Assembly (NCBI GenBank): GCA_964451895.1
Contig: CAYVJX010000001.1
Span: 7,802 to 60,240 of the forward strand
Length of the DNA: 52,439 nt
Source of the DNA: an uncultured Bacteroidaceae bacterium
GTDB lineage: Bacteria; Bacteroidota; Bacteroidia; Bacteroidales; P3
Direction of reading: 5' to 3'
This document shows, one piece after another, positions 1 to 47,941 of the stretch (the stretch's first letter is position 1; every line of letters starts with the position of its first letter). Both the position numbers and the translations under genes were made by a program. The notes beneath the pieces are model-generated. The model did not search any database, had not been told where the DNA came from, and saw only the letters and a list, made by a program, of their open reading frames with translations.

Positions 1-680
1 ACCGTGTCGCATACCGTCTTTGTCTTCACCGTCGGCTTCGGATCCTCCGGTTCGGTCGGCGGAATCTCCGTCATACAACCCGTTATCGCCCTCACCGTAT
101 CGCTACTGCCGTCCGCCGAAGAAACCGTTTCATACGTAACCTCGCAGTCTTCCGGTACTTCGCGGCAGTTGATCTCCGTTCCAGGACCTTCCTCCCGAAC
201 ATAGTTCGGATTCTTCTTCGTTCCTATGTTGATCTTCGTATATACCGTGTCGCATACCGTCTTTGTCTTCACCGTCGGCTTCGGATCCTCCGGTTCGGGA
301 CATATAACCTCTGCCGTAATCACTTCTTCACTGTTATCTACGGCACGATTCTTTTCGTATTTCACCTCACAATTATCGGCAACTTCACGACAATTGGATA
401 CTGTCGCTTGATCATATACATAGTTCGGATTCTTCTTCGTTCCTATGTTTATCAACGTATATACCGTATCACAAATTGTTTTCTTCTTCTGTGGCAGATC
501 CGAGCATGTAATCTTAGCCATAACAAATTCTTCACTGTTATCTACAGCACGATTCTTTTCGTATTCTACCTCACAGTTTTCGGCAACTTCACGACAATTG
601 GATACTGTAACTTGATCATATACATAGTTCGGATTCTTCTTCGTTCCTATGTTTATCAACGTATATGTCGTATCACAAAC
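1..680 (-). repeat. In-frame tandem array of Cys/Lys/Asn/Pro-rich units (68, 73, 81 aa, then a fourth cut by the window edge)
   Basis: Nucleotide repeats: catagttcggattcttcttcgttcctatgtt at about 200, 420 and 623, and accgtgtcgcataccgtctttgtcttcaccgtcggcttcggatcctccggttcgg at 1 and 246. Hand translation of 257-3 gives VCDTVYTKINIGTKKNPNYVREEGPGTEINCREVPEDCEVTYETVSSADGSSDTVRAITGCMTEIPPTEPEDPKPTVKTKTVCDT. Unit boundaries are 477-680, 258-476 and 15-257. A more diverged copy lies at about 680-900. Confidence 0.85.
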
Positions 681-33600: not shown

Positions 33601-36600
33601 TCCAGACTGTCGATACGCAGAATCTGCGCGGTGGCATCGTTCAAGTCCATGCCGTCCTTATACCATTGCAGGCTTACGGGAACGCTGTTGTCGCTCAAAA
33701 CGGCCTTGAGCTGATGTTTCTCTTGTGAGCAATAACGGTTGAAATCCTTTTCGATACCCACATAGGTAGGTTTGCCTTGCTTGCTTTCTACAGTATAGAT
33801 ATACTGCATATTGCAACCATCTTCAAAACCAACTTCAACAGGAATCTGAACCACCGAGCCCGCATTGCCCGCCACCACTTTATAGGTTTTGGTGGTGTCG
33901 CCATTGGGCCAAAGGAATCTCTTGCCGCCGGGAATGCTGATAAGAATCGTATCGCCCACGCAAACCGTAGCATTCATATATACCGGATCGGTGGTATAGT
34001 TCAAGGTAAAGGTTTGGGAACTCTGGCAGATGAAACCGTTTACGGTAAGCGTGGCTTCCAAACGACCCCTCTGCAGGGATGAAGGAACATCCACTCTCAG
34101 CGTGTCTCCCGTAGAACTGGGCGTGGCGGCCGTTTCGGGATAGAACCAACGATATTGAACGCTGTCGTTGTGGCGAGCCTTAATGGTTATCATGCCACCC
34201 GGACAACCCAGATAAGCGTCTTTGAGATCCGTTACAATCTGAGGCAGGATATTGACCTTAACCGTAGAAGGCTTGCTGTTACATTCGTCAACCACTTCAA
34301 CGGCACTGAAAATGTAGTTGCCGGAAGCCAAACCACTAATGTCATACGGATTGGCACGGCTTACCAACTGTTTGAGCGTAAGATCCTTGTACCAATTGAT
34401 AGCCCCACCGCGAGCCGCATCCACTTCCAAAGGCTTGCGCGCGCTTTCGGCACAATAGGTAGTGTCGGAACTGAGCATACGCGGCGCTTCGGGCGTGTTG
34501 TAGGCGTAGAACTCTACCGTATCATATACGTAGCAACCCGTAACCGTGCGGACCGCCACCGGATATGTTCCGTTGGGAATATCGATAAAGTCGGGATCCG
34601 GACCGAACGACTGTGGATCGAATATCGAGTATTCCAAAGTGGTATCGCCTTGGGCATAGATACTGATGATACCGTCGGTCAATTCGCAGGAAGAAGGATA
34701 TACTTCATCAATGTAGTTGATTACAGGCGCCGTACCGATAAATACTTCCACCTTGACCGTGGCGCTCTTGCAAGCACCCAACTGCTGATAGAGATAGAAC
34801 GTCTGACGACCCACGATAGGATCAAACGGCATGGAGTCGCCCGTATGCACCAAGGTTCTGCAAGTGTAGTCCGAGAACCATTTCACTTCCGCTTTCTTGG
34901 TTTTCGGATCCAGAATCAGGTATTGAGGCAGAACATCCCCCACGCAATACGGACCGGCGTTGGCCACCTTAGGTTCTATCGGGCCATTGGGATCACGCAG
35001 GCTGATTTCCGATTTCTTACTCCAGCAACCGTTGTTGTCTGACACTTGAAGCGTGTACATGCCGGCACCCACATTATCCAAAATGTTTGTGGACTTGGCG
35101 GTATCGTTGAAATAGTAGGTATAAGGCTGATTACCACGCGTAGCGTTTATCGCTATCTTACCGTCGGTGGCGGCACAAGCCTTAGGATTGGAAGCCAACG
35201 AAGTGAACGAAGGCGATTCCTTAACACCCAAGTTGATAGACTGCGAACGCATGGGGTTCGGATTAACGCACTGGGCAACGATGCCTTGCGGGGTAAGATA
35301 CGCCTGAACAATATCGTTGGGATATACCTCTTTTATAACAAATACGCTGTCGCGGGTAACATAAACACGCTTACCGTAAGAACCGCTGATAACAACGTCT
35401 ATCTTCTTCTGCAAACCGCTAAGGTTGGTGATGAAGCGAATCTTGGCGGGATCATTTTCGCAACGCGGCGTATCCACCAAAGCGATATCGAAGTAAACCG
35501 AATCGATAACGTGCAGGGTTATAGGATTGCTCGTGGAGTCAGGTTCACAGTAACCGCTTACGTGCAGACGGTACTGATCGCCGTCTTCTTCCCTCTGAAT
35601 ATTCTTAACCAACAACTGAGCGGTACCCGTGTTCGCATACTTGGTATCCGTTGAAGAGAGGCTGGTCCAAACACCGCCATCGAGTTTCTGCCAATCGTAG
35701 GTGAGCGAGGTTTCCCCGGGAGCCGGCTGTCCGCTTACCTTGGTGGTAAAGCGTGCCTGGCCGTCCAAGCAGGCATATATATCAGACTGTTGCGCTGTAG
35801 CCGCTGTAGAAGGCCAAACCTTTACAGAAATTTCCTTGCTGGCGGTACACTTCTTGTCGGAGAATACCGTTACCTTATACTTGACGGGAATAACGGGCTT
35901 AGCTTCCACCAACTGCGATTTGTTGGTGGCGTTGCGGCCGGTAACGATGGAGGTTTGCGGACTCCAAGACAAGCTGTCGATATGGTTGCCAACCACAAAC
36001 AGGCGCACGGCCGTACCCGGACAAATCGTGGTATCGGATGTACTCGATGCGATTTCGGGAGCCGGGTTGAGCTTGACGGTTACCGCCGGGGTACGCACCG
36101 GATTCTGAAGCGGACAAGCATAACTCAAAGTTACTTCGCAAGAAATGCGGTCGCCATCTTTAGGAGCTTTCGTATAGGAAGCGTTTCCATTAAACCCATC
36201 CTGCAAAGTATCATTCAAATACCAGCGATACTGGCTCAAATTACCCGAATAGGCATCGCCCGTCACATTCAATTTGAACCTGTTCGTTTCGTTGGAACAG
36301 AGAACGGTATCACCCACAATTACCGGATGGCTCAACTTACGTGCATTAACCGTAACCGTTATCTTGCCGAATACCGAATCCACCCCATCGAACACTTTGA
36401 TGATATATTCGGTTTTTCCTACCGGACTCACCGTAGAGAGAACGTTGGTGTCGGCCGAAACAAAGTTTGTATTGACCGGCGTGGTATCGAGAGGAACAGA
36501 CTTCCACGAGAAAGTATAGTTGCCCGAACCGCCGTAAGGTTCAAACGGCAGACGAACCGTATCGTTTTCGCAAACCGTGAGTTTTCCATTCTGCGGAAGC

Positions 36601-39600
36601 ACACCCAGCGGACCGCCCTTCAAGCTTACCTTATGGGAATGGCTACCCGAACAGCCATGAATATTGGTAGCGGTAAACGTGTAATCTACTGGACGCTTGA
36701 TAGGCTTGGTGGTTGCCGATAAAGCATTGCTGGCACTCGATAGCTCGTCAGCAGGAGTCCATTGGTAAACCAAGGCCTGACTTTCGCCGGGTTCAACGCC
36801 CGTGCTTTTAACCTCACCCAGCAAGGTATGCTGCGTATTGTATTGAACGATAACGGTAGTGTCCGAACCCGAATGAACCACCGGATTCTTGTGCGCTCTC
36901 AATAAGAATGTATCGGTAGGTTCGGGGTTGGATACCGGACATTCATAACCCGTGTAGATAAACGCTTGTATAAACGCACTGTCTTCCGCCTTGAACACGA
37001 ATTCCTTGCTCTTGCCGTTTTGTTTGCTTACGCCATTTACCCGCCAATCGATGGAATACTTCGAGGAAACCAGCGGATTCTGATGCGAAAGAACAAACTT
37101 AACCTGCGAGCCTTCGCACACCATGGTATCGGGCTGAACCGAAATGCTTCCGATAGCGTGCTGTATCGGATTGATGTACAAACGGGCAACCCCCGTAAGG
37201 TATTCAGGCGTATTGGAATATATGGTATCCCGTTTGGCGGTTTTGTCTTTAACCCCGCTTACACGGCAACGGAACTTGTAGCCGTTCATGCTCATGTTGA
37301 GCGGCGTGATGTTGGCGGGCATATTGCTCGAATCACGACCGATATGCAGACGGGAATAATTGGAGGTTGTGATAATCGTATAAGCGTTCACCAAACTCGG
37401 GTTGATATCCTCCCAGTTGCCCGTTCCGGGGTCAACCTGCCAATCGAACGACATGGACGCACCCGAAGCGGTTATCTCAAAATCGGCTACCGTGCTGTCG
37501 CAAACCGTAATCGGCTTGGGCTGGTTCAAGATGCGTACATCGGTATAGACTTCCACCAATACCGTATCATCCACCACACAACGCCACGGTTCGGTAAGCG
37601 TTACCTTGTAGCGGGTGGTGGCACCCGGCTTAACCGACACATCGCTTCCCGAACAGGAACTACCGCAAGGAGACCATTTATATTCGGCTTCAGGACTACC
37701 GCCCACGGCCTGCAAAGGAGCGGTCTCACCCAGATTGATACCGAAATGATTGGTAGGAACACCACCGTAGAGAATATCCAGATCGGGTTTATCCTTTACA
37801 ACAAAGTGCAGCACGTTGGAAACCTTGGGACGGCAATCCACACAATGGATACTCGATACCAGCAACATACGAACGCTGTCGCCATCCTGTACCGAATCCA
37901 ACGCCAGATAATCCCAACCGCCCTGCAATACGGTGTCTTCGTTGTATAGCCAGATGAACTGAGGCCTGTCGCCACCGTTCACATAACTGGAGCTGATACG
38001 GATCGGATAGTTGCGGCAAACAAGAACACTATCCAAGTCTTGATTGATATTGCTGGCAATCCTAACGTTAACCGTTTTCTTTTCATCTACCGCCGTGCGG
38101 ATAGAACGTGTTACAAAAGGTCTTGCCGTAACACATTCCAACGAAGAATAAACCGCCACGGAAACATTGAAGCCGTCATCGATACCCGCCAGCTTCACAA
38201 TCGAATCGCGGTTCGGGTCTCCAATCGGATTACCGTTGATGCGCCATTCGAACAAGGCACTGTCACCAAATCCGTAGCCGGTTACCCTAAAGACAGCCGT
38301 ATCGCCGAAACACATCCGTTCATAAGGCATATTCGGCACTACCGAATCAATAACGGCATAAACAGGATCCTGATTCCTGGCCGCCACCACTGCCATGGCC
38401 ATCGGCAAGTCTTCGGCATCGGCGCAACCCGGATCGATGGTAACCGTATAAGTACCCGCCATCCTTGCCGTAAAGCCGGCACGGAACGGGCTTTGTTCCC
38501 TGGCCACCCAACCGTCGGGACCCCTCCATATATAGGAGGCACCCGCTACCGTATCGGTGGTCAGGAAAAGCGTATCGCCGATACAAACCATCGAATCGGC
38601 GTATATCCTATACGTTGTAGTATCACAAGGAATCCCCTTGCGGGCAAAACCATCGGAACGACCGCCGGCATAAAGCGGATAGAAGATACCCGGTACACGC
38701 ATGGTGATATGGCCGTCGCCCAAACCACCCATATACGGCCAAGCTTTAGGCGCCATCATTCCCATCGAATGATGACCGTCGCCGATACCCCCTAGGAACG
38801 GAACGGCGAAGAATATCTTCATGGTGGATGTAACATGGCCATCGCCGATACCGCCCAGGAAGTTGGGGGCATAAATCATCTTCATGGAAGACGAGGTGTG
38901 ACCATCGCCGATACCCCCCAAATAATTGGTGGCGTAAATCATCGGTGTGCCTTCCGAAGTATGACCGTCGCCGATACCACCCAAGTAATTGGTGGCGTAA
39001 ATCATCGGTGTGCCTTCCGAGGTATGACCGTCGCCGATACCGCCCAAGTAAGTAGGCTTGTAAACCATTGGCGTGCCTTCCGAGGTATGACCATCACCGA
39101 TACCGCCCAAATAGGTAGGCTTGTAAATCATCGGCATGCTTTCCGAAGTATGACCATCACCGATACCGCCCAAATAAGAAGGCTTAAAGATTATGGGCTG
39201 CTGAACGCTCGAATGCCCGTCGCCGATACCGCCTAAATAGGCCGGTTTGTGTATAATAGGCAACTGTACGCTTGAATGGCCGTCACCGATCCCCCCCAAA
39301 TACACCGGCTTGTGAACTACCGGATTCTGAACAAAAGAACCGCCATCCCCGATACCCCCCATAGCCGGACGTGCCGGCTTTGGCGACTTATGGATGACCG
39401 ACGCCCCAGAAGTTCCAATACCACCAAAGAAAGGTCCTTCGTCTTCATCCCCCAAGGGAAAGTCTCCGGGAAGATCCGCCGGATACGAAATTGGAATAAA
39501 GGGTTCCGGCAAAAGCATATCCCCATCAGAGGCCTGCGGATACAGCATAGGCTCCGCCAACGAGAACGCCTGATAACCCCGCCTTTCGGATACCGAAACA

Positions 39601-39779
39601 GCCTGGTTCAAGTTGGGCAAAACAGCCGGAGCGGATACCGAAAGAGCGGCCTCCTCTCTTAAAGCCTCTTGCTTTAGAGACGAAAGCCGCGCCACCGTGG
39701 CACTGCCCGCGGCAACTCCGGTCAGACACAAACCGAGAATCGCCCACTTACGTATGTTCTGTCGGTTAAGAGCTTTCAA
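1..39779 (-). CDS. Giant secreted SprB-like / Ig-PKD-repeat cell-surface protein: 13,259 codons in the window, 3' end beyond the left edge, absent from the supplied ORF track
   Basis: The frame is the reverse complement with codons on plus coordinates 3n..3n+2. It was open and in the same register everywhere I hand-translated: 39,779-39,600; 39,023-38,961; 35,250-35,040; 33,440-33,360; 25,080-25,020; 19,427-19,200; 16,370-16,320; 9,345-9,300; 7,568-7,440; 5,640-5,590; 4,740-4,680; 257-3. The track lists about 40 minus-strand ORFs in 1-39,779 and none is in this register. A frame with any in-window stop would have been listed, as pieces or whole, so there is no stop before the window edge. An in-frame TAG at 39,783-39,785 bounds it upstream. 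The first start codon is TTG at 39,779-39,777, giving MKALNRQNIRKWAILGLCLTGVAAGSATVARLSSLKQEALREEAALSVSAPAVLPNLNQA. Examples read from sequence: AQAIGGTAPYTYTWSP (about 5.6 kb), QVIGGSGEYTYRWKGNGISYDSL (33.4 kb), ACAATDGKIAINATRGNQPYTYYFNDTAKSTNILDNVGAGMYTLQVSDNNGCW (35.1 kb, SprB-repeat-like). Confidence 0.93.
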   Translation of the reverse strand, partial: MKALNRQNIRKWAILGLCLTGVAAGSATVARLSSLKQEALREEAALSVSAPAVLPNLNQAVSVSERRGYQAFSLAEPMLYPQASDGDMLLPEPFIPISYPADLPGDFPLGDEDEGPFFGGIGTSGASVIHKSPKPARPAMGGIGDGGSFVQNPVVHKPVYLGGIGDGHSSVQLPIIHKPAYLGGIGDGHSSVQQPIIFKPSYLGGIGDGHTSESMPMIYKPTYLGGIGDGHTSEGTPMVYKPTYLGGIGDGHTSEGTPMIYATNYLGGIGDGHTSEGTPMIYATNYLGGIGDGHTSSSMKMIYAPNFLGGIGDGHVTSTMKIFFAVPFLGGIGDGHHSMGMMAPKAWPYMGGLGDGHITMRVPGIFYPLYAGGRSDGFARKGIPCDTTTYRIYADSMVCIGDTLFLTTDTVAGASYIWRGPDGWVAREQSPFRAGFTARMAGTYTVTIDPGCADAEDLPMAMAVVAARNQDPVYAVIDSVVPNMPYERMCFGDTAVFRVTGYGFGDSALFEWRINGNPIGDPNRDSIVKLAGIDDGFNVSVAVYSSLECVTARPFVTRSIRTAVDEKKTVNVRIASNINQDLDSVLVCRNYPIRISSSYVNGGDRPQFIWLYNEDTVLQGGWDYLALDSVQDGDSVRMLLVSSIHCVDCRPKVSNVLHFVVKDKPDLDILYGGVPTNHFGINLGETAPLQAVGGSPEAEYKWSPCGSSCSGSDVSVKPGATTRYKVTLTEPWRCVVDDTVLVEVYTDVRILNQPKPITVCDSTVADFEITASGASMSFDWQVDPGTGNWEDINPSLVNAYTIITTSNYSRLHIGRDSSNMPANITPLNMSMNGYKFRCRVSGVKDKTAKRDTIYSNTPEYLTGVARLYINPIQHAIGSISVQPDTMVCEGSQVKFVLSHQNPLVSSKYSIDWRVNGVSKQNGKSKEFVFKAEDSAFIQAFIYTGYECPVSNPEPTDTFLLRAHKNPVVHSGSDTTVIVQYNTQHTLLGEVKSTGVEPGESQALVYQWTPADELSSASNALSATTKPIKRPVDYTFTATNIHGCSGSHSHKVSLKGGPLGVLPQNGKLTVCENDTVRLPFEPYGGSGNYTFSWKSVPLDTTPVNTNFVSADTNVLSTVSPVGKTEYIIKVFDGVDSVFGKITVTVNARKLSHPVIVGDTVLCSNETNRFKLNVTGDAYSGNLSQYRWYLNDTLQDGFNGNASYTKAPKDGDRISCEVTLSYACPLQNPVRTPAVTVKLNPAPEIASSTSDTTICPGTAVRLFVVGNHIDSLSWSPQTSIVTGRNATNKSQLVEAKPVIPVKYKVTVFSDKKCTASKEISVKVWPSTAATAQQSDIYACLDGQARFTTKVSGQPAPGETSLTYDWQKLDGGVWTSLSSTDTKYANTGTAQLLVKNIQREEDGDQYRLHVSGYCEPDSTSNPITLHVIDSVYFDIALVDTPRCENDPAKIRFITNLSGLQKKIDVVISGSYGKRVYVTRDSVFVIKEVYPNDIVQAYLTPQGIVAQCVNPNPMRSQSINLGVKESPSFTSLASNPKACAATDGKIAINATRGNQPYTYYFNDTAKSTNILDNVGAGMYTLQVSDNNGCWSKKSEISLRDPNGPIEPKVANAGPYCVGDVLPQYLILDPKTKKAEVKWFSDYTCRTLVHTGDSMPFDPIVGRQTFYLYQQLGACKSATVKVEVFIGTAPVINYIDEVYPSSCELTDGIISIYAQGDTTLEYSIFDPQSFGPDPDFIDIPNGTYPVAVRTVTGCYVYDTVEFYAYNTPEAPRMLSSDTTYCAESARKPLEVDAARGGAINWYKDLTLKQLVSRANPYDISGLASGNYIFSAVEVVDECNSKPSTVKVNILPQIVTDLKDAYLGCPGGMITIKARHNDSVQYRWFYPETAATPSSTGDTLRVDVPSSLQRGRLEATLTVNGFICQSSQTFTLNYTTDPVYMNATVCVGDTILISIPGGKRFLWPNGDTTKTYKVVAGNAGSVVQIPVEVGFEDGCNMQYIYTVESKQGKPTYVGIEKDFNRYCSQEKHQLKAVLSDNSVPVSLQWYKDGMDLNDATAQILRIDSLDAGIYTYVVKATAKEFCTTPQETYDTVQVKVFETPVVYAGPDVIDLPYGEKAKVGMGAQVIGGSGEYTYRWKGNGISYDSLRYPVYTNRLYTGTTVTLYATDTVSGCVGKDDVDITIAGGPFRIKVTAPEVVCQGDTARLNVLAEGGSGKYAYHWKELPSGAFVDSTATTKPVLNSQTTFAVMVVNLTEGGHTAADTLRDTVTVKVDNLPVAGHIYTPDTTMCQDTSYLLLLKDYFGDAIVWEKSCEGVIWSDMGASSDSVLRTGECATNHYRAWVSNGVCPAHLTEEYRVHIHQPITNIISGPVPGGTLCPETDSVQFGGNDLPSGYTYQWQYGMDEVHFKSCPAPDDTAFKYTWINAIDSSRYIRRVVYYDGCPFISSTIKVSVYDDSNIGEIEGENYVCIDSVGYMSVPNTSMASYRWEVATDTTKDSADWTEVLGGTTFTCSTKQMERGDTLFYRAIGQKNSCEPDTTGIFHVIATDPLPVAIFISADTTEVCLNNFVTFTVDSVHFEGKKPLYYWYVNGNELSLPVKKGKDTLAYASKDGKTLYISTLLPGDSVQCALASSIGCVTERLAMSNAIKPLVYVPLVKMVEPASDLTFCRRDIIKLRADSAQYYRWAYFGTDDTAVMPMKGNSFIYFDTVTKVSPTVVTTYYVYGTDRHGCTGIDSVTLTPEPLFTALTPDTTICAGSKLSLKAVPASTRGVTYSWREVAVRDTNTARTLPDNTARNTITPAVIPLDSLTYYIYTINTPAPRYCSFTDTIRVFVEQNETPAVSIDYEGIRYNDTVHIIECDKREHFFSYESEWAGDEPKYKWIFNGEDVSHDSLFSDHYPYMVDHSSLYVEMESSRRCVTERTVKSNKFFVKYTKMPEAVVSINSNKGLKVCPNEEVVIFQAHAPTYDTGIFEWYVKYADSSRFAHVHTGDSLVSRFATGDQVYCIYVAKDTCIKYSPKQSNTLRFDNYPLYKPQVEIVGLNSGVDGNGDTVCEGATTVFTARLADQGSDYRLVWLVDGMEVGTPNSLTLSYSAFIAGHRDSAYRQSRVTARLETKHICAVPSNLNADDTLVYIKPRKALGVIIEQDVLQACNSLREEQVAFTHVYGPLSVSGNTIIANCSYQYWNTGAVSQQTIEDNGGVSAYAGNTTSHQMFGLTSRKDVTHYSHIDYAIYFDYGTIQIYENGDYKGSFGGYNTAQKYTVEIADSVVRYLRDGVVFHTSQTRDTIGLYRGGFSLHADNCRRPNMRAYIEYRNSSIVFGSTVYEPPVNKPDYNWMVNGVPFEFGNGEDTLYDHKYRFEPYDVVTLVVHSNDVCMERENAESNPITVHPTDPGNFLQLADTAYVCRGDSVRLTASGAKTYEWTLPVDMDTATVHDSSIVVWPAQTTTYRVTGANDEGCSDFKRIVVVVFELPDPNLGPDREVCYTDSLYFSVRNGAVPDSVTDRFYRTEWTFITPTDTVALTSPYDNAISFDAEESGVLVAKMVNKYSGCYTLDTLNLTVHPLPHIKMPDTLQVCISHDLAIFDSAYDQDYKKVNTYTWTPTTRISNGNGYTNGSYKIFNSADTGFFTYYVDVKTPKNCHAYDTVYVRNIKQELALNAELIRQTICEGETPRFILTGQWWDTLATAVLYRNGSQVATYTVGHTGESQRDTVSYTGTVANKDRFQFKLTSLNPCLVVKQIMSNFDTLGVIYNTTLASTPDSLCIGHDLTLQAQPRQDTNVHYTWTMFNGYEQTVIRYIGATPDTVHETVYINHGAFGFDTNTVVVPMPSLPTYFMVEADGGHGCVTRDTAYVGIIRADTLWAHVEQTLDSCYNPEMAYPTWDFTSPALIPMAGGQIIKDGSQGAGWNYITSPTVLHGNFMYRYVISGKEGYAMVGINYEGRSHNSCYGWWYNWCGYDADYTFYLVGGSGENNLRIYERGNHVWTGGSYKEGDVLFIVRQSGYINYYQNEVLVRRVKERSPSLNFNPEISMYSPGTSVDPVRYVELQNIELSSSAGTIASKINHKWYVNGKVVSTDSILKVHEAGFTGMNDTLVYEVSGQTKCDGLQTVRDTLAVQSPKGYTPVFLLLTTDSTQCQGRDFTVRAHLINRSGEVPDSAIRYNWYRGDLRIASATRADSIVITNAGINEYVWAQAYVDTIAKHCAFNNIKNPVRSSYLTLPVEPAKVLGVNVDVFPGQTVCLFSDVLFNATQVVSGLPDAGENPTVEWYLNGRFVSSDKTYRTDSLQDGDSVYAIITASAEVQCLDTNRKQTRVVHMDVLPAPVLAAHKDTIVTYNSEAKLWAEVIKNWEPNLKYEWYPSFDISEPYSANDSATVVKSRIDHIYTVQARNSIGCYSNEASVHVEVLTCPQFILRGSGTKACAGDTAFIYLQVQGFRPYTNIYFWQISHDNGATWRTLDPLTDGDFDIRVGTNSVTLVLAKTLAAYDKANSLFRCGAVATDTLLTCDTVYSRSAFIDVVDYTIPVAKVYGDTAICPRSPVIFTASGAVNPGDYYQWYVNGQMAAGNGSTLSLDSVKGNTQISVSTIIRNDQNACVDNAKATDTLHISVYPQPQLVMYPDTAIHIGDTAPVGVLVSGGTTPYTYSWNGLPNTTLFATNTDSTATKNQLFTTIYTVTVTDSNHCSAKGSMTVSIEDTCKLYVSIYGPKTVCFDSSVTFKGLVTGGLQNADIHYMWRCVPVVDTTVVTFTGKEFTVRALKPGTYNLTFAAVDSSEYVKELCPDEPHSATATFQFTVEPPKTFEVRIDTLAALCAGTESTLTATSYVNGSAATIAVSYAWQQYDRLGNIVKAQNSTSAQFVVKNWTEYDWVSVAATMGGDECETGMVVYDTLRPVINPQPGPLQARRIYVGGLEPCTFDTAVIGLNVPMAQEGQVQYTIDGGKTWHSDSLFTPVEDGDYYPGVKFIATGCEYISDTVIIVSLPEPSKMPDVQVKGDSSICMGVLADSLVAYDGHRGSIMVWYADSALTQVLAQSAVNAGRVAYGLPDSIKNTIGVYTFYAAQYAGDCKSDPKPFTVTVREADTANGMQLHYVKRFKCVDDGVAVPVKVSVQFDTINVEGIYQWTVLTGQAISGTGKEVSVDVVDSARICVVFTYVSSCDATTRTLYSDTISIRVAGIENTLSPGSLICIGDSTVAHSLDESGLSDTSFKYTWQTKTYDASTGKWTWNAATGNSKQENYTVYHSYLQPVEGKPTGYKQLSVRRILSVDGCSDTSAEIIFYYSPAPTATATISVPEVCVGYMVGATVSGTYLGTAPYANWYVNDMLVKTHDTLAVNLGVLAQGSKVRAVVYPVYDTMCPIVDSLVVEDTVKLKEAIAADIKITVADTLFCTPGNTFTASYNIGYSNDPQYKWFYNGVRVDSADGKSSYTRMNVKPGDSVYVMIHATVDCPAADSVRSASVLAGHRAPTVSGSVEAVPDTSLMKLDSIKFVASGADSYLWQDNNATGSVHHVYAKSGQSVYCVQLHTDGYCDTVLCVSSVIPTAGLTVPPVCEKQDVNAFVTGSNLGVSPYVNWYVNDTLVAAADTLVKNFGKRKDSTLITAVVYPDYSALVLPAGTATVDSIVLNVYASVTEAIKGKVSISVEDSLFCSLSNTFKATYNAEYSDTPQYRWYHNGVLMASANGMASYTSNNVKNGDSVCVVIFARNDCPASDSVRSDYYYARKGQIVPASIDVAATDTLCLGDTLRVKVSGADSYAWNDNSTDSARIFTAIQTPTTYSVTAHTDGYCDTTLSVTVVSRVRPANTKLVQNSLTICGDDTATLWITKAPGTGVLWNTGHTSDTIRVVVPNGKDSTIKVVFTDVYGCEFGPDSVTVQVRDSRPVNFVKDNLGLPDTACWRSQFSAVARVEPNDKADMYFTWYRSGAYWKSGYNLDSLALKGTDFPSASPYEITVIVQDNGICLRMRQDTIVDTIVVEQPKQAGINIQSNSHIDNDTLRICVGEATRLFSAVSNAGPVFEDGSHNWYIEWYRNGTFVQRGDTVTFAHLPIGSQIYAILYVDTTECNYAINSPVKSRVLTVVSVPQPDVQVELSLKLDTICSNSEYQVQAYVTNGGTDPQYRWYVNGFLATMGDERGNTVPINSPILDIIDIKQQAAQHGTNYDIVCWVKSSLPCAADSVRNKGVSTLVVFPADTLDVIISPQVDTACAYDNGNVVVTMHADVIGMAEGYDIEEPDLQWYVAATENDAPTPIAGATDKDLHYTTKNLTGNEVFSVRAFSKYLCTWNSSLVSEKARILLWPISSEAGVNDTVRNYADFVFSTDTAIGGTPHWITRGDGHFVYTDTSHPTYVLGVADKKSEGIWLVQEVTNKFGCYAADSMFLFISHCEDYKLEKDWADRIICGSETISLENRMVAKSGALSAVDSASYWFTVITDTVIDTLAVTKDLAFAWSGLFDTTRTYVLHATVNDLDCRYVDTMRVALHTVPVINFPDTLHACANHALDIQDSAYNSAAKADYSYTWNPSTYLSGQTANLSYVKFNSVDSGWFTYVVDAATPAGCHSYDTVHVYNVKHELTAQLTLLDRWICEGDTLRMAISGDWWLENATAQLYRNNVLVQTDTVGRAGRKQADTLVYGGEIKHGDIFLVVINSNDECLTTKTVTSNYEYVSVVYPTKIDAVPDSLCVDYDLTLNAMPKQDTGIHYKWTAFNDSASIYVHHKTIGKDTSVVVLPMPDASTYFEVEATGYGCTSRDTVYVKFMRSDSLWVTAEQIIDTCNSPTPQTPQWRSSGEMIYINGAQIIHNAGNYWNYLTSTTDMEGDFIYRYVISGKEAPAMVGINYKGRTHTNCSYWWWNWCGYDADYCFYISQEGGQPQLMIYERGGRVWSGSLWHEGDILYIIRQNGYINFYQNEVLVRRVKEREPNRAFNPEVSLHNVGTAVDPINYVALPQIKVDNKSGYIAGKKSHKWYINGELASTDSILRTLSTGLTDNDTLVYEVSGTTNCGEFQMASDTIIIQKPEGYSPVFLTLSHDGKKCEGSDYMVHTHIINRTEAIPDSAIRYNWYRQTELVAAGTQADSFLFTKVGRDEYVWAQAYVDSSYSGCAFNSWHNPVRSPFLYLPIEPSKKMGVNIDVYPGDSVCRFAEVLFNATQVISGMLDAGEKPTVEWFLNGKFVSAEKTYRTDSVEEGDSIYAIITASPEVLCLDTNRMQTKTLGMHVLTTPVITAHKDTVVEYNKEANIWAEVIENWESGITYEWYPSFDIRSPYKKTDSATVVRAKIDHYYTVQARNRIGCASNEASVHVEVLSCPQFILRGAGTETCLGDTAYVYLQVQGYRPYSNNYFWEMSTDHGTTWTVVDTSGDDYSIRTGLDNVTLLIHKATMAHDVSNALFRCAAIATDPRLEYCDTAYSSNVYVKVIHYVQPVAQMSGDSAACVDVPAEFTATGAVNEGDYYLWYRNDVLAPSNGANFILDSIDGRDESILVTVKIRNDENICVKESVDSMRVNVYPGSKLVMLPDTVIQMGDTAVVGVTVIGNSAPYSYSWNGLPNTTLETPYLSQSLTKDQYYTTRYTVTVTDSNGCRIRGNMMVRIADTCLVATSIYGPNSICMDKTGKFEAFVTGGLESSNLHMMWSMTPQMDTSVIAPNGKEISFRAMQPGTYTLTLTVSDTSEVTKKYCSEESQTMSVSTTITVDPKKDVRVKINGPSQICEGSTHALRAILTIDGVQTGIYRTFAWYRVDRFGNSSLFSFHRHDSPNDDNICGETIRNWGKGEKIVVAATLYGGDCEAGTVVYDTLAPYVMTTPGPLNVRDMYISGLMPCTFDTAAIGLTVPVEQRDSILYSIDGGNTWSSNALFQPVADGYYYPAVKFSTNGCEYHSPNTVLIKLPPAKPMPAIKVSGDGEYCLYNPIDTLVAYDGYNGAVVGWYADADRNVVLVEGAQGESSVAYIIPDSVHKTLGEYIYYAGQHLGRCQSELTQVPVTVRERDTVIGFKLGFVKRYNCNADSTPVWVDVYAEHEKNNVEGVYNWYSVYPVAFKGSGSRVQVATVDSNTVYATFTYTSACTGKVETVYSDTLKIDISQLPNTLIPGVSICPDSSVLVHAIDSLDFDTTFSFRWEAHYFTMHLGSGSWSWGLAPGVNDEENYTLHHSSLYHVYGTPEQRKELTVRRVVYAEGCYSVSDPVTFYYHPLPIPKPVLDLPRTCRGYDLTASVSGQGIDSVTTYVNWYVNDVLVKKNGLISENLGALLDGDAVKAVVYPLYDTLCPVFDSVILTGNAKVDTAIEADLWIKASDTLFCGTQGTFTAMFNSGYTDNPRYKWYYNGNHIAAADGSQTYSRSWHEGDSVYVAILANNMCTVTESAQSPVLYIHRGTTVAGSLNINPDTSICLGDTLRVAAQGGTTYTWSDGATGANRDFIATDIDRKYTLTIHTDHYCDSVIDVNVVSRKRPANTHLVQSKMTICGDDTAHIVANVDPGVHVLWSTGDTGAILRLPMMSHKHEVKVQATFVDAYGCPFGPDEILLDIHDNRPVDFAENTLHLPDSICWRETFSAVANVTPADKDSIYYAWYINNEFWLGHAGYNRNVLNDLKGADFTSSAPYIIKVVLQDNGWCRLNRQDTLVDTIVVIQPRDAGINIQSNSTIDGDTIRICVGETTRLFAAVSEAGPVFEDGSHNWYIEWYKDGSLVRTADTVTFKGDLPVGSHIKALLYVDKTEYCYAKNSPVWSRELTVASVPVPKVEVDLDLKVDTVCSNEDYRIVANVTNGGTNPVYHWYVNGSLVTTVDNGGNTIPLDMPYLDLVNIKQQEDGSNYDIICWVKSSLPCANDSVRNDDTATLVVFPADTLQVTISPEIDTACSYLNGDIEVILKATVTGRAVAFDVEEPDLQWYRNGQPLFGYTKKNFRYISKDITNEDEFSVMAFSRYRCTWNSALISDTAHVVLRPVIPDAGKDDSIYNYADYRFYSDTAIGGEPHWITRGDGLFVNADTIHPLYKLGEEDKKSDGIWLVLEVTNAFGCSALDSMFLFVSHCEDYGWFTDVADVTICHDKTIEVVNHLEAKPGAVYPVEKANYALVALSAGTYATDTLAKSNDLTFSWTGVVDTTRTLVLTGSSNGYGCPYTDTVNVTVLPLNEISVELTQHGNDTCQNFAANTGNWDITPGHYDLHWDYNASTGVLSHTHCNNASDLVSTDFGAANTMMRYVATGNELAGMVGFNYEGRRSSELDYGVYFNYGTINLYYLGYATDYMPIGTYQAGDVFTIIRTDDKVYFYVDQNNEHKLLRVLDEPEYGIGRRVNYAIGSYRVGATFNNIWYLNQPATKIGNKITFDPLPGKLSYAWSLNDSIVSTDSLWNAEKFHVHDGDRVKLCVEGITVCDTVSVCDSLTISSIDVYSPMYLTLVRDSMNECDGDAFTLTATAHNLPAGIDASRLRYNWYQNGKVLATGTTSNVYMLDSAHIGDYAYAEAYILDDICVVNNQAKPAVSHRVTFDLKENKELGVALTTNVAVEPAVCPNTEVIFTANVTNGGSYTVNWFVNGKFHAVGDNLSMRADTTYSVYARVDAKNDAVCLDIDTIYSDTLTVNVLPAPVVEAWSDTVVDKGSAVALNGKVVANADTVMTYHWTGCGGIERADTLHTTAVANNSCVYYLTAFNSIGCASEPDTVFVDVYDCPSLASVDVPAVICENDSAVVRVNVYGFKPETNSYKWQISTNNGTTWSDLSAGSRYAMSQDRLGGQLVVRNVSTDISAGTAIFRCVVKATDSALAFCPAVITPDIKLNVDITARNLPTIQIVGQSDFCTNSATVGTVYSVNITPGYEVAWKQNGSGVLEYDGNDHRRGYTVADGDKVIGVLYSGNTCIDRLQISDTLTVHFHPQPSLTAWTDTTIAYGDFAALHAKLTNGTGPVVYSWTPADKVLNADTAHTFTTALFESTVFNVEATDSVSCGAKGRVVVIVSDTCVRKVELDGPTSVCADEVAQFTGLVTGGGVVGNYDLSWRIEPALSTNDGSLFVPNAGATLNIADAVPGDYTIIFTVTDTSAAVKTYCDPDGVVMSDTAVLNIYAPDTLAVSLSSLADSVCEGETITLVAHATINSTPDADAALTYEWFRIRNGFNSYIGSASDTLNIYNAADRDVYYVIVSENGDCHVNNHARSNNDTVTVHPVPEPLKPYQVYAHSHISCVEDVAYIRIDADTSLHLLYSIDSGATWHAKYLFDTLEKGTYHVMVKGEAGCEAQGVQTVYIDVQPDLNFAAPDVAFDSIVSCIDNLTPIVAYNKQSGYLGWFTDSALTHRLAISEQDADSMVYTPVIDTPGRYLFYIKKGLGDCEGPATKVIYIAGTCNIRLEPAPAGLCPDDSTKLYAVIDEATRNISKHWSYQYSANGKFDTTTVVVSRFDKMDTIFVKDTGYYRIVDTTYWNTVMYSNVSRVQMGSYAKFGAGCIDIAYPTAGAVAMCAGDGEVKISVNCMTSDYYVVWPDSSRNNSYTKNFDTATDVKIVVKSVIGDCPVDTTVRVVVLPKQYIKLSYNDTTICLGNEAKVSIMLPKIMDSGTVYPPYSNYEWRYKTGLDYTDGEYNEQDVNYNGSLMLSGLKVKSGDYTDYTYVAQAFASLASCPSVTDTLRIRVRRNNFILAPDSLTFCSGESDSISLPAADSIGINGIFMPYVSKLAVGPITRDSIMAITLYNDACRATDTLKIRYILPDSLVASLSPVADTCAEITADTMKWNGSTLHTAANGWQSVYAADTLKANAELNYVVSGQERAMVIGLEYIDNNRGLWNKPYSLYLSDNGSEDSRKFYFYESGWEVNYTAAGDYRMGDLFTVRRSGGHVEYYHNGTLLRRVAEPEALKSNAMRISASNYYQGSDIAPLSVASIPAPQISTSLYHRYDDLHYAWFVNGMSVSNDSVLDNGYILVEGDTVVWQVTSYGICDTAMSADTLVIDSQNAYASIGVNLTSGSKSVCRGEAVELTADITRLPDGVSLGDVRYNWYINGTAVALDNTSATYTHNNVADGDYAHVEVYADGLCLLNGKSNPARSNTLYFNVDTAEQVELALDIQPAAAVCEGEEMQFTAVMRGLKYAPTIEWFVNGMNKGTGNSLTLADAKTGDSIYAVATFDAEENCQGGKTLRSNTLKLSVNPVPVVKAITDTTVLRGATVPLTGIVTAGWTPGMQYVWSPATLTNDTLTTAVVTNITTYTFTAVNAYGCQAEAQVQVDVESPYKEECAYLSAQSAINAPAVCEGDSTSFTVTVSGSKPDAYSYNWQISADNGNTWNDIAAPLYVNRGTSLHIPAVTSSMNGSLYRAVIVPDAAHSHCDTLYSLPFKLAVKTSSRQHNISIDGDGELCANAETFAYILNASVQAGDHFFWYLNNILVGQDIATLNLNKEQLGKGGILKALWQMASGDCASQIAYADSIEIAVGDELSVVAGNDTVIDKNTTAALFAQAIGGTAPYTYTWSPALSTTVTPEGRTLTQPLASTTVFTVTATGAHGCEATAQVKVTVKDTCLQDVVISGPRTGNQTSCQGEQVELQALVSGGMPGNYTIEWTVAPALAADEYVPVQNNSDLWIKPSMPGVYTIQVTVTDTSALAAAHCEASQLVQTTQITLTVTGKDTLAVSLDRPDSVCQNVEFSLNAHATLNGQAAANVNYHWYRVRNNVVYDLGMGGAMLVPTDALDADRYFVVASSTEECLANSEAVSDTVESVLYPVPTKLKPSDVVYTPGRMCSDDTASLEIKGSYKVAQIKSRWPQTLYYSIDNGANWQTSTLFKPLPDSAMFQVVVKNQYGCIDANNRLDIKRAPQTIDAWIEAGPDDTIVAGQTFRVHGDTVAAPGTPHWTTSGTGTFVNADTLHPVYIPSDADVVAGKVKLYLSVNSNNYCPLKDSLTLYILECGVYSIVRNGGDTVVACGDETLTFIGKLASDNAALTPPKADYEWRFIDIVFGSGYTVEHSDMNADSSRWEPADPTPGMYELYVKTVTNCVLTDTFYLDIQSIPTGEGTIELIYPGGNNAISMCINDTARIVVTDDSGLNTYIWPDGTESDGVSNNTYAVTATKDTSVIVKITSKGGCVGYDTIEIAVDKPFALSLSRNDTTVCVGNDVRLPKISAPGYGSIAPLTTYVWKNSHGDTVDAGNYAAQNRPVMTITQDTVYRAYAYTEAHCQSAVAEYKVATDKYRLVLADTLYACYGDKVKFAMPAATKNYTLNGASFNAASSAAFDVETSSLYNDTVLVVTATDTLGCGNSDTVMVHVLPLPDMNIVNPGACANQPLVLRLPNLDSTDECKWEVNTVSGTYNFTGDTITFRPGASDSILYIDLKVTNRLGCIYTKKDTVNVYMWPDLNIHDTAVCEGLEGITLIPNYSSVNATYNVTWLRKGLDSATKLPHSTYHELAVTDTVSHRYYFELKNKTNGCTDTGSVMVNITRLPKLKHIVDDTLCVNEPTYIFTYDNVGQFEAEDDAATQWSCMEYLSNGSQKAGYIDPSFVSTLKTQRIKVDYRPSDEIKALGGVAHFVVYTTGKNECAGIKVADSFNLVFTDPLEVLVSDDQYVCISTGKDAKIAVDLRPTFENIAGYEFKIDTTKVKVDQVWGSEHKQGTLIYHNPGGDTNVVCHDTLRVWNEEGCELVRPFSVEFVGGAPYVKPDTLTICPGDTVTVKVSNPNSQLDPIWRNIETGRLVTRGNEVRLSPANTTMYRITQLESADPACTGITTEDTLTIVVRDRILVETAGDTNVCEITDVKVGVTEVSQNVHRYQWIDSATGDVISTDSAFMMKAVSSNHTFFLTVWNDSTGCTDHDTLRLTYGGNLYKLNFYDTTVYVGTTIDVVVHGPWPTEKDPACPYEWFNETDTLTICNLDSIWHLQATKTTDYTLYLRGGETECYNRLRVNVIRLNLHDTAVCDYCPTEIGIDSVEIDYVEWYYLDTLRFTSGHSEPVETQFCFDDTVRNKHQVITDSLYYHAYVIPYPYKVKESDTVPAGPFCDTVYSEPYIELAYDGKRSAKHDTKTEDIDVYKEFLHWNKVEVLCKEPAPGKKFVCDTLFMVMCFPDFEGLTILRFGEGMLVNCREVDSICVVVGTEDHLNNSWNEDTVTLTLDCSVSEPPTGGPTIVCDTTYTLINIGTKKNPNYVYDQVTVSNCREVAENCEVEYEKNRAVDNSEEFVMAKITCSDLPQKKKTICDTVYTLINIGTKKNPNYVYDQATVSNCREVADNCEVKYEKNRAVDNSEEVITAEVICPEPEDPKPTVKTKTVCDTVYTKINIGTKKNPNYVREEGPGTEINCREVPEDCEVTYETVSSADGSSDTVRAITGCMTEIPPTEPEDPKPTVKTKTVCDT
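4640..7700 (-). repeat. Core cassette IV (~3.0 kb) of the giant ORF; boundaries approximate
   Basis: It starts with ...RKFYFYESGWEVNYTAAGDYRMGDLFTVRRSGGHVEYYHNGTL (hand-translated 7,568-7,440). It ends with KSRWPQTLYYSIDNGANWQT (4,740-4,680). It contains YSYNWQISADNGNTWNDIAAPLY (about 6.15 kb) and AQAIGGTAPYTYTWSP (about 5.6 kb) at positions equivalent to those in cassettes I-III. Confidence 0.6.
9250..12330 (-). repeat. Core cassette III (~3.0 kb) of the giant ORF; boundaries approximate
   Basis: It starts with RYVATGNELAGMVGFNYEGRR...INLYYLG...GDVFTIIRTDDKVYFYVDQN (about 12.3-12.0 kb). It ends with DTSLHLLYSIDSGATWHAKY (9,345-9,300). The intervening module order matches cassettes I, II and IV. 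Confidence 0.6.
16280..19430 (-). repeat. Core cassette II (~3.1 kb) of the giant ORF; boundaries approximate
   Basis: Hand-translated start: TDMEGDFIYRYVISGKEAPAMVGINYKGRTHTNCSYWWWNWCGYDADYCFYISQEGGQPQLMIYERGGRVWSGSLW (19,427-19,200). It ends with QRDSILYSIDGGNTWSSNAL (16,370-16,320). In a 60-nt stretch I counted, 17941-18000 versus 26584-26643, 50 of 60 positions are identical. Confidence 0.7.
24950..28110 (-). repeat. Core cassette I (~3.1 kb, about 1,000 aa) of the giant ORF; boundaries approximate
   Basis: It begins on the N-terminal (high-coordinate) side with the module FMYRYVISGKEGYAMVGINYEGRSHNSCYGWWYNWCGYDADY...IYERG...YINYYQNEVLVRRV. It ends with the SprB-like module QVQYTIDGGKTWHSD (about 25.0 kb). 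Module order is the same as in cassettes II-IV. Anchor nucleotide match: 27996 aligns with 19350 and 12261 (gtagttga.acccaccatg). Confidence 0.7.
38646..39422 (-). repeat. In-frame tandem array of 13 units of 63 nt (21 aa) with a GG[IL]GDGH core
   Basis: The His codon (plus-strand atg or gtg) recurs at exact 63-nt spacing at 38709, 38772, 38835, 38898, 38961, 39024, 39087, 39150, 39213 and 39276. A GGIGDGG unit sits at 39339, and degenerate units flank the array (GGIGTSG near 39402, GGRSDGF near 38646). One unit translated by hand reads TSEGTPMIYATNYLGGIGDGH. The units at 38898 and 38961 differ at 5 of 63 nt. Confidence 0.92.
39690..39779 (-). other. Predicted N-terminal signal peptide of the giant ORF
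   Basis: The translated N-terminus is MKALNRQNIRKWAILGLCLTGVAAGSATVA. It has a basic n-region (K, R, R, K), a hydrophobic core (WAILGLCLTGVAAG) and a small-residue A-T-V-A stretch. The cleavage site is not determined. Confidence 0.55.
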
Positions 39780-39789
39780 AACCTATACT

Positions 39790-44237: not shown

Positions 44238-44262
44238 TTATAAGAATTTAAAATAACTTATC

Positions 44263-47940: not shown

Positions 47941-47941
47941 C

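Follow-up and report, generated by a model that had tools for sequence, protein, structure and literature searches.

Type IX secretion system (T9SS) cargo is recognised and anchored via its C-terminal domain; a domain of type A is cleaved and the cargo is linked to the surface, and type B cargo is retained by proteins like PorP/SprF (PMC10202324). For SprB, the C-terminal 448 residues are enough for surface attachment (PMC12635249), and in the sprC-sprD-sprB-sprF operon of Flavobacterium johnsoniae two accessory genes, which support the function of this giant Ig-like adhesin, lie directly upstream of its gene (PMC5879114). PorK has a fold like that of formylglycine-generating enzyme (FGE) without the catalytic cysteines, and its former substrate groove is the docking hub for loops of PorN (PMC12421860). 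In this study, we analysed a 52,439-nt stretch of DNA from an uncultured Bacteroidaceae bacterium (assembly GCA_964451895.1, contig CAYVJX010000001.1, positions 7,802 to 60,240 of the forward strand), hereafter called the window. Two genes for FGE-fold proteins are followed there by the gene of a giant, predicted SprB-like surface protein, the N-terminal region of which holds an array of 13 tandem units of 21 residues. The linkage of the repeat gene and the FGE-fold gene, which recurs across Bacteroidota, suggests a two-part docking module. By analogy, the PorK/GldK/GldJ docking hub appears to be the closest known principle, and sprC-sprD-sprB the closest gene arrangement.

PorK, GldK and GldJ are, like the proteins described here, Bacteroidota proteins with an FGE-like fold that lack the two catalytic cysteines, and the partner of PorK is likewise encoded nearby (PMC12421860). 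They are lipoproteins, whereas the FGE-fold proteins of this study have a type-I signal peptide without a lipobox Cys, as well as a conserved N-terminal domain of ~200 aa that distinguishes them from PorK, GldK and GldJ. In addition, the partner of PorK is a machine component, whereas the presumed partner here is formed by tandem repeats located N-terminally in a cargo protein. The layout of sprC-sprD-sprB is the same as that of the window, namely two genes and then an SprB-type giant, and the likeness rests on gene order and Ig modules. The pairing of FGE fold and repeat differs from that cluster in occurring also with small cargo that is not of the SprB type, and the 3′ end of the giant gene, together with any sprF/porP-like gene, lies outside the window. 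The features that make up the pair are given below in window positions.

3..39779, minus strand: gene of the giant, predicted SprB-like surface protein, at least 13,259 codons, with the C-terminus beyond the left window end
38616..39434, minus strand: repeat array (aa 117-389), 13 units, each 21 aa (63 nt) long, consensus P-x-Y-L-G-G-I-G-D-G-H-T-S-x-x-x-P-M-I-Y-K
39790..41427, minus strand: 545-aa FGE-fold protein, upstream of the giant gene and separated from it by 10 nt; Pfam FGE-sulfatase (PF03781) 33.2 bits (cutoff 23.3); signal peptide VYA↓NNI
41542..43443, minus strand: second FGE-fold protein, 633 aa according to the gene call on contig L120; Pfam FGE-sulfatase 38.8 bits (cutoff 23.3)

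A first-pass annotation of this DNA had counted 13 units of 21 aa with a 63-nt period, made up of ten GG[IL]GDGH units, one GGIGDGG unit and two degenerate flanking units; translation and Tandem Repeats Finder (period 63 nt, scores 372-416) bore this out. The full inventory is GGIGTSG (degenerate, leading), GGIGDGG (one unit), GGIGDGH (nine units), GGLGDGH (one unit) and GGRSDGF (degenerate, final). The range first assigned to the array (38646-39422) lies inside it and is too short at both ends, and the minus strand of the gene had been left unstated. All 11 matches of GG.GDG in the 13,260 aa fall inside the array at an exact spacing of 21 aa and none elsewhere; approximately 5e-5 matches of GG[IL]GDGH would be expected by chance from the composition of the giant. 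The array had also been placed right after the signal peptide, although an acidic, Pro-rich leader was mentioned in the same annotation; ~85 such residues intervene.

The pairing was investigated in loci obtained by scanning one genome per species with a degenerate DNA pattern. A same-strand FGE-fold homologue adjoins 43 of the 66 open reading frames (ORFs) with spaced motifs, usually within ~30 nt. Among the 23 unpaired ORFs, two (L109, L113) have partial FGE matches at the locus edge, four Bacteroidota loci (L003, L014, L032, L065) are cut at their upstream edge, and the remainder, all from outside Bacteroidota, represent unrelated repeats or matches by chance. The association with FGE-fold genes that had been proposed for the window was thus recovered in 45 of 45 evaluable Bacteroidota loci, whether the repeat gene was giant or small. 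The FGE-fold gene stands upstream of the repeat gene in every paired locus except L093, where it is downstream. In nearly every Bacteroidota small-repeat locus the homologue has 470-520 aa (27-31% identity over ~500 aa), and the paired loci include Ferruginibacter, Ginsengibacter, Flavisolibacter, other Chitinophagaceae, Saprospirales and Flavobacterium caeni. When the ORFs were clustered all against all, only two families proved universal, the repeat protein in 49 loci and the FGE-fold protein in 44; the remaining neighbours of the pair in Ferruginibacter are housekeeping genes, such as rpoD, folB and a thioredoxin-reductase-like gene. Both FGE-fold genes precede the giant in the same order in L051, L067, L086 and L006, and in L004 the nearer one is visible, cut by the locus edge.

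Matches of the DNA pattern in Actinomycetota, Acidobacteriota and Kordiimonas were inspected and discarded as GC-rich chance matches or unrelated repeats. The Pro-rich repeats PVEPDGGIGDGAGP of two Kordiimonas loci (L038, L098) hold the GGIGDG hexapeptide without the aromatic positions or an FGE-fold neighbour, and are look-alikes. Near-identical 63-bp tandem repeats in the Acidobacteriota metagenome-assembled genome (MAG) CAVUJU01 (L033, L044, L069) contain in-frame stops and are apparently non-coding, chance pattern matches.

The converse test was performed by looking up the contigs of eight FGE-fold homologues. In seven of the eight, the gene that follows the last FGE paralogue encodes an N-terminus with GG-type motifs, and three of these genes encode giants.

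L122: two FGE-fold genes, then a 12-unit giant of at least 8,281 aa
L123: one FGE-fold gene, then a 130-aa protein (7560-7952) in which nothing but a signal peptide, one YTGGNGRGD motif and a short linker precedes a T9SS C-terminal domain
L124: four FGE-fold genes, then a protein with at least four F.GG.G[NKR]GD motifs
L125: two FGE-fold genes, then a Pmp-like β-helix protein starting YTGGNGRGDH...FSGGSGRGDH
L126: one FGE-fold gene, then a giant of at least 13,416 aa with FLG[ST]INDGY units
L127: five FGE-fold genes in tandem, then a complete giant of 15,517 aa with GG.SDGF units from aa 260
L128: two separate FGE-fold pairs, with two small cargo proteins that have T9SS C-terminal domains
L129: one FGE-fold gene, no repeat-type partner

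These sequences point to a general rule, in which at least one FGE-fold gene is followed by an exported protein with 1 to ~13 motifs of the [FY]xGGxG type in its N-terminal region. The motifs stand at the mature N-terminus in small proteins, and after the leader or an N-terminal domain in giants. The number of FGE-fold genes beside giants ranges from 1 to 5 and is 2 in the window. A one-to-one relation between FGE paralogues and motifs was considered; it fitted three loci (1:1, 2:2 and 4:4) and failed when more loci were included.

Several side observations concern these loci. The 130-aa protein directly after the FGE-fold gene of L123 represents the minimal form of the pair. In a sister motif, [FY]xGGxG[RKN]GD (L124, 13209-13755; L125, 7278-9368), the acidic residue is displaced by two positions; this motif heads unrelated cargo, including the Pmp-like β-helix protein, downstream of 2-4 FGE-fold genes. 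One of the five FGE-fold genes of L127 (5845-17617; GCA_003324365.1, QMCD01000178.1) has an added F5/8 type C (discoidin) domain, and the array of its giant begins after an extra N-terminal domain of ~230 aa; a similar extra domain is found in P0033 (6,725 aa).

The first search for relatives of the repeat was a word-index homologue search with the N-terminus of the giant. It returned 2 orthologous fragments and 16 other proteins, 14 of which are small repeat-bearing Bacteroidota proteins that combine a signal peptide and 4-9 units of the form xxFxGGxGDG[FWHY] with a ~100-aa domain and a T9SS sorting domain of type A; a word-index search with a 63-aa profile gave one match. An exhaustive search with profile A1, built from three-unit segments, against 1.84 billion representatives yielded 662 protein clusters at E ≤ 1e-3 and 335 at E ≤ 1e-10. 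In the best 150 of these taken together with the earlier matches, the median protein has 338 aa, 5 units and its first motif at residue 29, and the unit spacing is modally 21-22 aa (range 19-28). Most members have ~340 aa, 4-8 units directly after the signal peptide and a C-terminal T9SS sorting domain, and Por_Secre_tail was found at the C-terminus of 88 of the 123 small members. The models for such sorting domains are PF18962/TIGR04183 (type A) and PF13585/TIGR04131 (type B). Their signal peptides are canonical and end in A-Q, with Gln nearly invariant at the predicted cleavage site, which is consistent with the 'Q-rule' of Bacteroidota. Arrays at the N-termini of other giant proteins, for which the first-pass annotation had suggested a search, were found in L003, L006, L067, L086, L122, L126, L127 and P0033.

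Family-wide, the units recur every 21-22 aa and follow the consensus [FY]-x-G-G-x-G-D-G-[FWHY]. In tables of 67 giant-type units and 231 small-type units, G5, G6, D9 and G10 hardly vary, if at all, and an aromatic residue (Y/F) occupies position 3. At position 11, giants have H/F/N/Y and small proteins, which also have conserved Q and N positions, have W/F/Y/H. The fourth Gly of the core is often A, S or N, and the orthologue P0002 as well as L003 and L122 have GG[ILMFV][SNTA]DG[FVN] throughout. Conservation of the core in orthologues thus extends to G-G and D-G, and not to the His or the fourth Gly. The idea that an invariant Asp-Gly-His serves as a metal ligand accordingly lost its footing, since the His is replaced by F, N, Y or W in giants and in the family, leaving G-G and D-G as the only invariant parts.

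No model of Pfam-A or NCBIfam covers the array, nor the repeat part of 123 (Pfam) or 10 (NCBIfam) relatives, in agreement with the view that it is not a described Pfam repeat. When the array was searched as a profile against all PDB sequences, the best match had E = 0.1 and consisted of designed WD40-like Ika proteins. The string 'GGxGDG' was absent from the literature searched, and the literature searched on T9SS and gliding held no pairing of an FGE-fold protein with a cargo repeat. As judged from these searches, the repeat is an undescribed Bacteroidota family, and neither it nor its pairing with the FGE fold was found in Pfam, NCBIfam, PDB sequences or the literature searched.

The FGE-fold partners belong to a family with at least 2,917 homologues at E ≤ 1e-10, which are named 'formylglycine-generating enzyme family protein' or 'SUMF1/EgtB/PvdO'; the 545-aa and 633-aa paralogues of the window are ~30% identical. 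All 28 N-termini inspected have a type-I signal peptide that ends A↓NNI, without a lipobox Cys at +1, and the N-terminal domain of ~200 aa (SWENSWR...AAWIFVK) is conserved in the family. The FGE motifs KYE..FLN, RPxTExExEKACRG, WG, NMSxNxxE, RG and GxR are retained. A catalytic Cys pair was not detected: no Cys lies between the RG and GFR motifs in 8 of 8 members with the C-terminal segment displayed, no column in the region of the FGE pair reaches 40% Cys across 30 aligned members, and neither Cys nor His is invariant at any position (28-30 members). The partners are therefore predicted to be non-catalytic, having lost the active-site cysteines of FGE, and the annotation 'formylglycine-generating enzyme family protein' is probably misleading for them. 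Neither FGE-fold protein of the window matched NCBIfam at E ≤ 0.01, where the presence of GldJ/GldK models is unconfirmed; no PDB chain named PorK or GldK was matched at E ≤ 0.01 by single sequences or the profile, the presence of such chains in the PDB set being likewise unconfirmed. A T9SS C-terminal domain was not recognisable in the FGE-fold proteins.

Taken together, we infer, at somewhat less than an even chance, that the array is a β-rich docking platform for the co-encoded non-catalytic FGE-fold partners, with fold, binding, compartment and role all belonging to that inference; the repeat and its family, its N-terminal place, the gene pairing and the missing cysteines of the FGE active site are direct observations. 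Its 12-13 units would stack into a β-rich, probably solenoid-like rod with approximately three short strands per unit, in which G-G-x-G-D-G would form a repeated exposed turn and the aromatics at unit positions 3 and 11 would form ladders. The Sec-exported FGE-fold proteins without catalytic cysteines would dock on the repeated turns via the former substrate groove, and the complex, perhaps formed in the periplasm ahead of export, would be located at the cell-distal tip of the fibre in this SprB-like giant. If the partners bind, the principle of a repurposed FGE fold as a docking hub would extend from the secretion machine (PorK/GldK/GldJ) to the cargo, thereby hinting at how cargo tips are built or handled. 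The N-terminal, presumably outward ends of SprB-like fibres and small T9SS surface proteins are largely uncharacterised, and the repeat profile and consensus provide a testable handle on them.

Structure prediction was consistent with part of this reading. AlphaFold2 gave a mean predicted local distance difference test (pLDDT) of 46 for the N-terminus with a shallow alignment, with values of 53-78 over units 3-8; for seven units with an in-register alignment of 20 arrays, the pLDDT was 58 and the predicted template modelling score (pTM) was 0.51. The seven-unit model is strictly periodic, with three short strands per unit at Y-L, G-H-S-S and M-I. Its leading Foldseek matches, all non-significant, are β-solenoids, namely, the CsgA fibril, FapC, left-handed β-helices and ice-binding proteins, and the top one is the CsgA fibril (E = 0.53, TM 0.25, at the model pLDDT of 58). 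These models weakly favour a solenoid-like stack, which is our best guess for the fold. A WD40/FG-GAP β-propeller, with blade-length repeats of ~40-60 aa, was rejected: only the Ika match at E = 0.1 and FG-GAP_3 in 1 of 123 members point that way, and units number 4-13, including odd numbers, a poor fit to two units per blade.

A number of results speak against a docking platform. The structure models are of low confidence (pLDDT 46 and 58), a hairpin-stack geometry is also possible, and neither array model had a significant Foldseek match in the PDB. The FGE-fold proteins have no recognisable T9SS C-terminal domain, so they are perhaps periplasmic while the array ends outside. The numbers of FGE paralogues and units do not track each other (1:~8, 2:12-13, 5:at least 10, 1:1 and 1:3), the FGE-fold homologue of L129 has no repeat-type neighbour, and none of 120 homologues proved to be a fusion of FGE fold and repeat. 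Lastly, the T9SS C-terminal domain of this giant lies outside the window.

The position of the array on the cell depends on the rest of the giant. Beyond the array, the protein consists of Ig-like modules; Pfam Ig_7 ('CHU_C associated') matches with 87.8 and 89.8 bits (cutoff 27.3), Ig_3 and BiPBP_C are above their cutoffs, PKD_3 is just below its cutoff, and the SprB repeat (25.9 bits) is under its cutoff of 28. The long array of Ig-like/CHU_C-associated modules identifies the giant, at the level of predicted domains, as an SprB-like surface protein. The first-pass annotation had assigned the repeat array to the cell-proximal end of a surface fibre. The opposite is expected of an N-terminal array in T9SS cargo that is anchored C-terminally (PMC10202324), and Por_Secre_tail stands at the other end of the small members, in the proportion given above. 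The array is therefore probably at the cell-distal end of the fibre, the C-terminus of this giant lying outside the window; an exact 40-mer scan of metagenome contigs for the flanking DNA that would carry it returned nothing.

An alternative takes the distal position further. The motif [FY]xGGxG(DG/RGD) could be an unrecognised N-terminal tag of T9SS cargo, which the FGE-fold partners would bind in the periplasm and with which they would ride out through the T9SS to sit at the distal tip. As the partners have no secretion domain of their own, they could hitch-hike bound to the tag, and the FGE fold, which we take to be classed as C-type-lectin-like, would then be displayed there. We consider this unlikely, though realistically conceivable; if true, the tag and its partners would amount to a modular tip-adhesin or hitch-hiking system, the first of its kind in type IX secretion, with cargo ranging from a 130-aa stub to a 15,000-aa fibre.

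It is also doubtful, though deserving of a hearing, that the pair is an enzyme and its substrate, with the FGE-fold proteins modifying the repeated motif (e.g. an aromatic residue, Asp or Gly) in the periplasm and the array being a multi-site substrate whose modification creates function. FGE (SUMF1) and the CxPxR motif of sulfatases offer the same combination of an FGE fold and a short linear motif in a Sec-exported neighbour, and canonical FGEs act on a short linear motif of unfolded Sec-exported proteins, often encoded adjacently. The tight pairing with intergenic gaps of a few nt, and the protein of L123 with its signal peptide, one motif and T9SS domain, would suit a processed tag. When the family profile was compared with the PDB, the best matches (E ~1e-6) were human and bacterial FGE and EgtB, that is, true enzymes and not PorK. 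However, the present proteins have neither a Cys in the region of the copper-binding pair nor an invariant Cys or His, and the Pfam FGE-sulfatase match is limited to positions 34-195 of the 255 in the profile. The motif itself holds no fixed Cys/Ser for formylglycine formation, the residue after D-G being F, W, H, Y or N, and no sulfatase is present in the neighbourhood of the FGE-fold genes.

A dedicated periplasmic chaperone is quite unlikely as the role of the FGE-fold proteins, which would hold or cap an aggregation-prone β-solenoid until T9SS export and be absent from the final surface structure. Their Sec signal peptides and lack of a T9SS C-terminal domain fit this role, and the folding of T9SS cargo is believed to precede export and to take place in the periplasm (PMC10202324). 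Imperfect repeats of 21-22 aa, together with the leading but non-significant matches to CsgA and FapC, recall functional amyloids, which have dedicated periplasmic chaperones; CsgA/FapC has a similar count (5-13) of imperfect repeats of ~21-23 aa with a Gly-rich turn. The likeness does not extend to sequence: no match to the Pfam Curlin_rpt repeat (S-x5-Q-x-G-x-G-N-x-A-x3-Q) was found, and hhalign of a seven-unit profile against mature CsgA (sequence entered by hand) gave a probability of 0.15%. Unlike curli, the repeat family is exported by the T9SS, and no csgG/E/F-like genes are present. A chaperone would also leave unexplained why a single-motif protein without any other domain exists, and why giants have two to five diverged paralogues.

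Equally, we see little probability in a self-sufficient tip module, in which the array would be an adhesive or spacer element, possibly stabilised by Ca2+, and the FGE-fold genes would serve the fibre in some other way, like SprC/SprD, without contact with the array. Gly/Asp-rich turns bind Ca2+ in the β-rolls of RTX proteins, and RTX repeats (GGxGxDxUx; HemolysinCabind) are likewise tandem Gly/Asp-rich turns in a secreted protein and predicted to be β; a Ca2+ role for the Asp is conceivable. The array is nevertheless not the RTX nonapeptide, as had been noted before: the period is 21-22 aa against 9, the core is GGxGDG (GGIGDGH in this array) with one acidic residue per 21 aa, and PF00353 had no match at E ≤ 1 on the N-terminus of the giant and none at E ≤ 1e-3 in the 123 family members. 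The order of two accessory genes and then a giant adhesin is that of sprC-sprD-sprB (PMC5879114). However, the FGE-fold gene tracks the repeat and not the giant fibre, as it stands equally beside repeat proteins of 200-500 aa without an Ig-like rod, and beside the unrelated Pmp-like β-helix cargo that shares the N-terminal motif only.

The number of units in orthologous giants is a further point in favour of such a fixed-length structural element. The pattern scan found orthologous giants in the Bacteroidales MAG loci L003, L004, L006, L051, L067 and L086, and L122, L126 and L127 were added by look-ups. They mostly share the layout of leader, variable acidic linker, array, last unit and first Ig-like module, which correspond to the array above and the following features of the window.

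39690..39746, minus strand: N-terminal hydrophobic segment WAILGLCLTGVAAGSATVA, peak of the Kyte-Doolittle 19-residue mean 1.66
39435..39689, minus strand: acidic Pro-rich linker of ~85 aa, from translation and leader alignment; sequence variable among orthologues
38616..38678, minus strand: final degenerate unit PLYAGGRSDGFARKGIPCDTT, the junction between array and first Ig-like module, conserved in every orthologous giant
38373..38615, minus strand: first Ig-like module after the array, aa ~390-470, conserved in orthologues; weak Pfam PKD_6 match over aa 390-453

The final unit has the form PLY.GG.SDGFAKR..PCDTT in L086, L067 and L006, and a similar unit occurs in L122, L003 and P0002; the penultimate unit WPYMGG.. 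is conserved in L086, L067 and L006. Counted in strict register, the units number 12 in the window, L086, L067, L006 and L122, some with a degenerate leading unit in addition, and 10 in L003, a close relative of L122. Every lineage has homogenised its own central units, with adjacent units of L086 differing by 4 nt. Change of copy number, which had been thought plausible, is borne out by the 12 versus 10 units of L122 and L003 and by the lineage-wise homogenisation, but five of the six orthologues have exactly 12 units. Copy number thus appears changeable yet mostly held at 12, which points to a length constraint.

The leader of the giants begins with a basic n-region and a hydrophobic segment of 19 residues, followed by a candidate TVA↓R cleavage site; this segment could act either as a signal peptide or as a signal anchor. 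L004, L051, L067 and L086 retain the leader sequence RKWxIAGLCLxGVAxGSATVARLSSL, from which L006 and L122 diverge. The hydrophobicity of the leaders is borderline between a signal peptide and a membrane anchor (window 39690-39779, minus strand), and the leader is far better conserved than an ordinary signal peptide, without the A-Q cleavage context of the small members. Foldseek matched the first Ig-like module best, though not significantly, to Ig-like pieces of GhpA, the grappling-hook protein of Aureispira (39% identity, 67 columns).

The least credible explanation, a neutral low-complexity expansion or an assembly artefact without specific function, has in its favour near-identical central units in which short-read assemblies break, and is hardly tenable given that core residues are fixed while their codons vary synonymously, that architecture and unit count recur in diverged MAGs and that the family has 662 clusters. 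The nucleotide pattern of the array bears on the first two of these points.

38931..39182, minus strand: central units 5-8, near-identical with 5-15 differences per 63 nt (pairwise matrix), where short-read assemblies break

Units 7 (38994-39056) and 8 (38931-38993) differ at 5 of 63 nt, as first reported for the central units, and units 5 and 6 differ at 7 of 63 nt; the outer units show 20-40 nt differences. The codons of the core Gly and Asp vary synonymously among units (GGG/GGC/GGT and GAT/GAC), so the core is kept by selection at the protein level and does not just stem from recent duplication. Orthologous MAGs that share the architecture and unit count have FGE-fold proteins that are merely 56-72% identical. 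Two contigs that are 100% identical to the window, L120 (SRR9130099) and L121 (SRR9129758), end at window positions 38991 and 39110, respectively. Since both of these independent short-read assemblies end within near-identical units, the copy number of units 5-8 is dependent on the assembly. Most orthologous giant genes also run off contig ends, and the giant genes are systematically truncated in MAGs, with near-identical units breaking short-read assemblies.

The sole long frame in the region is on the minus strand (window 3..39782; 13,260 codons, left end open). An independent gene call on L120 placed the start of the giant gene at TTG 39779, 10 nt after the stop of the upstream gene. A plus-strand reading was rejected, as its 22 long ORFs (400-38,800) are codon-aligned antisense shadows of the giant gene. 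Seventeen plus-strand ORFs of 251-1,513 aa lie in one common frame, antisense and codon-aligned to the giant gene (window 400-38800). The shadow frame has open stretches of up to 1,540 codons, with stops only opposite the sense codons TTA, CTA and TCA. The long antisense shadows probably reflect the avoidance of TTA/CTA/TCA codons and are not real genes.

Other genes of the window lie to the right of the FGE-fold genes. Neither Pfam nor NCBIfam matched three divergent genes (166, 216 and 592 aa; window 45224-47002 and 43737-44913, plus strand), except for a TPR_8 match below threshold in the 216-aa gene; in L051 and L086 the 166-aa and 216-aa genes again lie next to those of the FGE-fold proteins. 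At 47170-48520 (minus strand), an AbiEii toxin gene (Pfam E = 4.5e-17) adjoins a weak AbiEi-like antitoxin gene, and from their sequences the two look like a type IV toxin-antitoxin pair. A protein of the β-lactamase fold is encoded at 49951-51126 (minus strand); its best NCBIfam match is 3-succinylated cholic acid synthase (E = 3.4e-29), far under the model cutoff, a hint that the DNA stems from gut Bacteroidales. The related MAGs include one genome from a mouse-gut catalogue.

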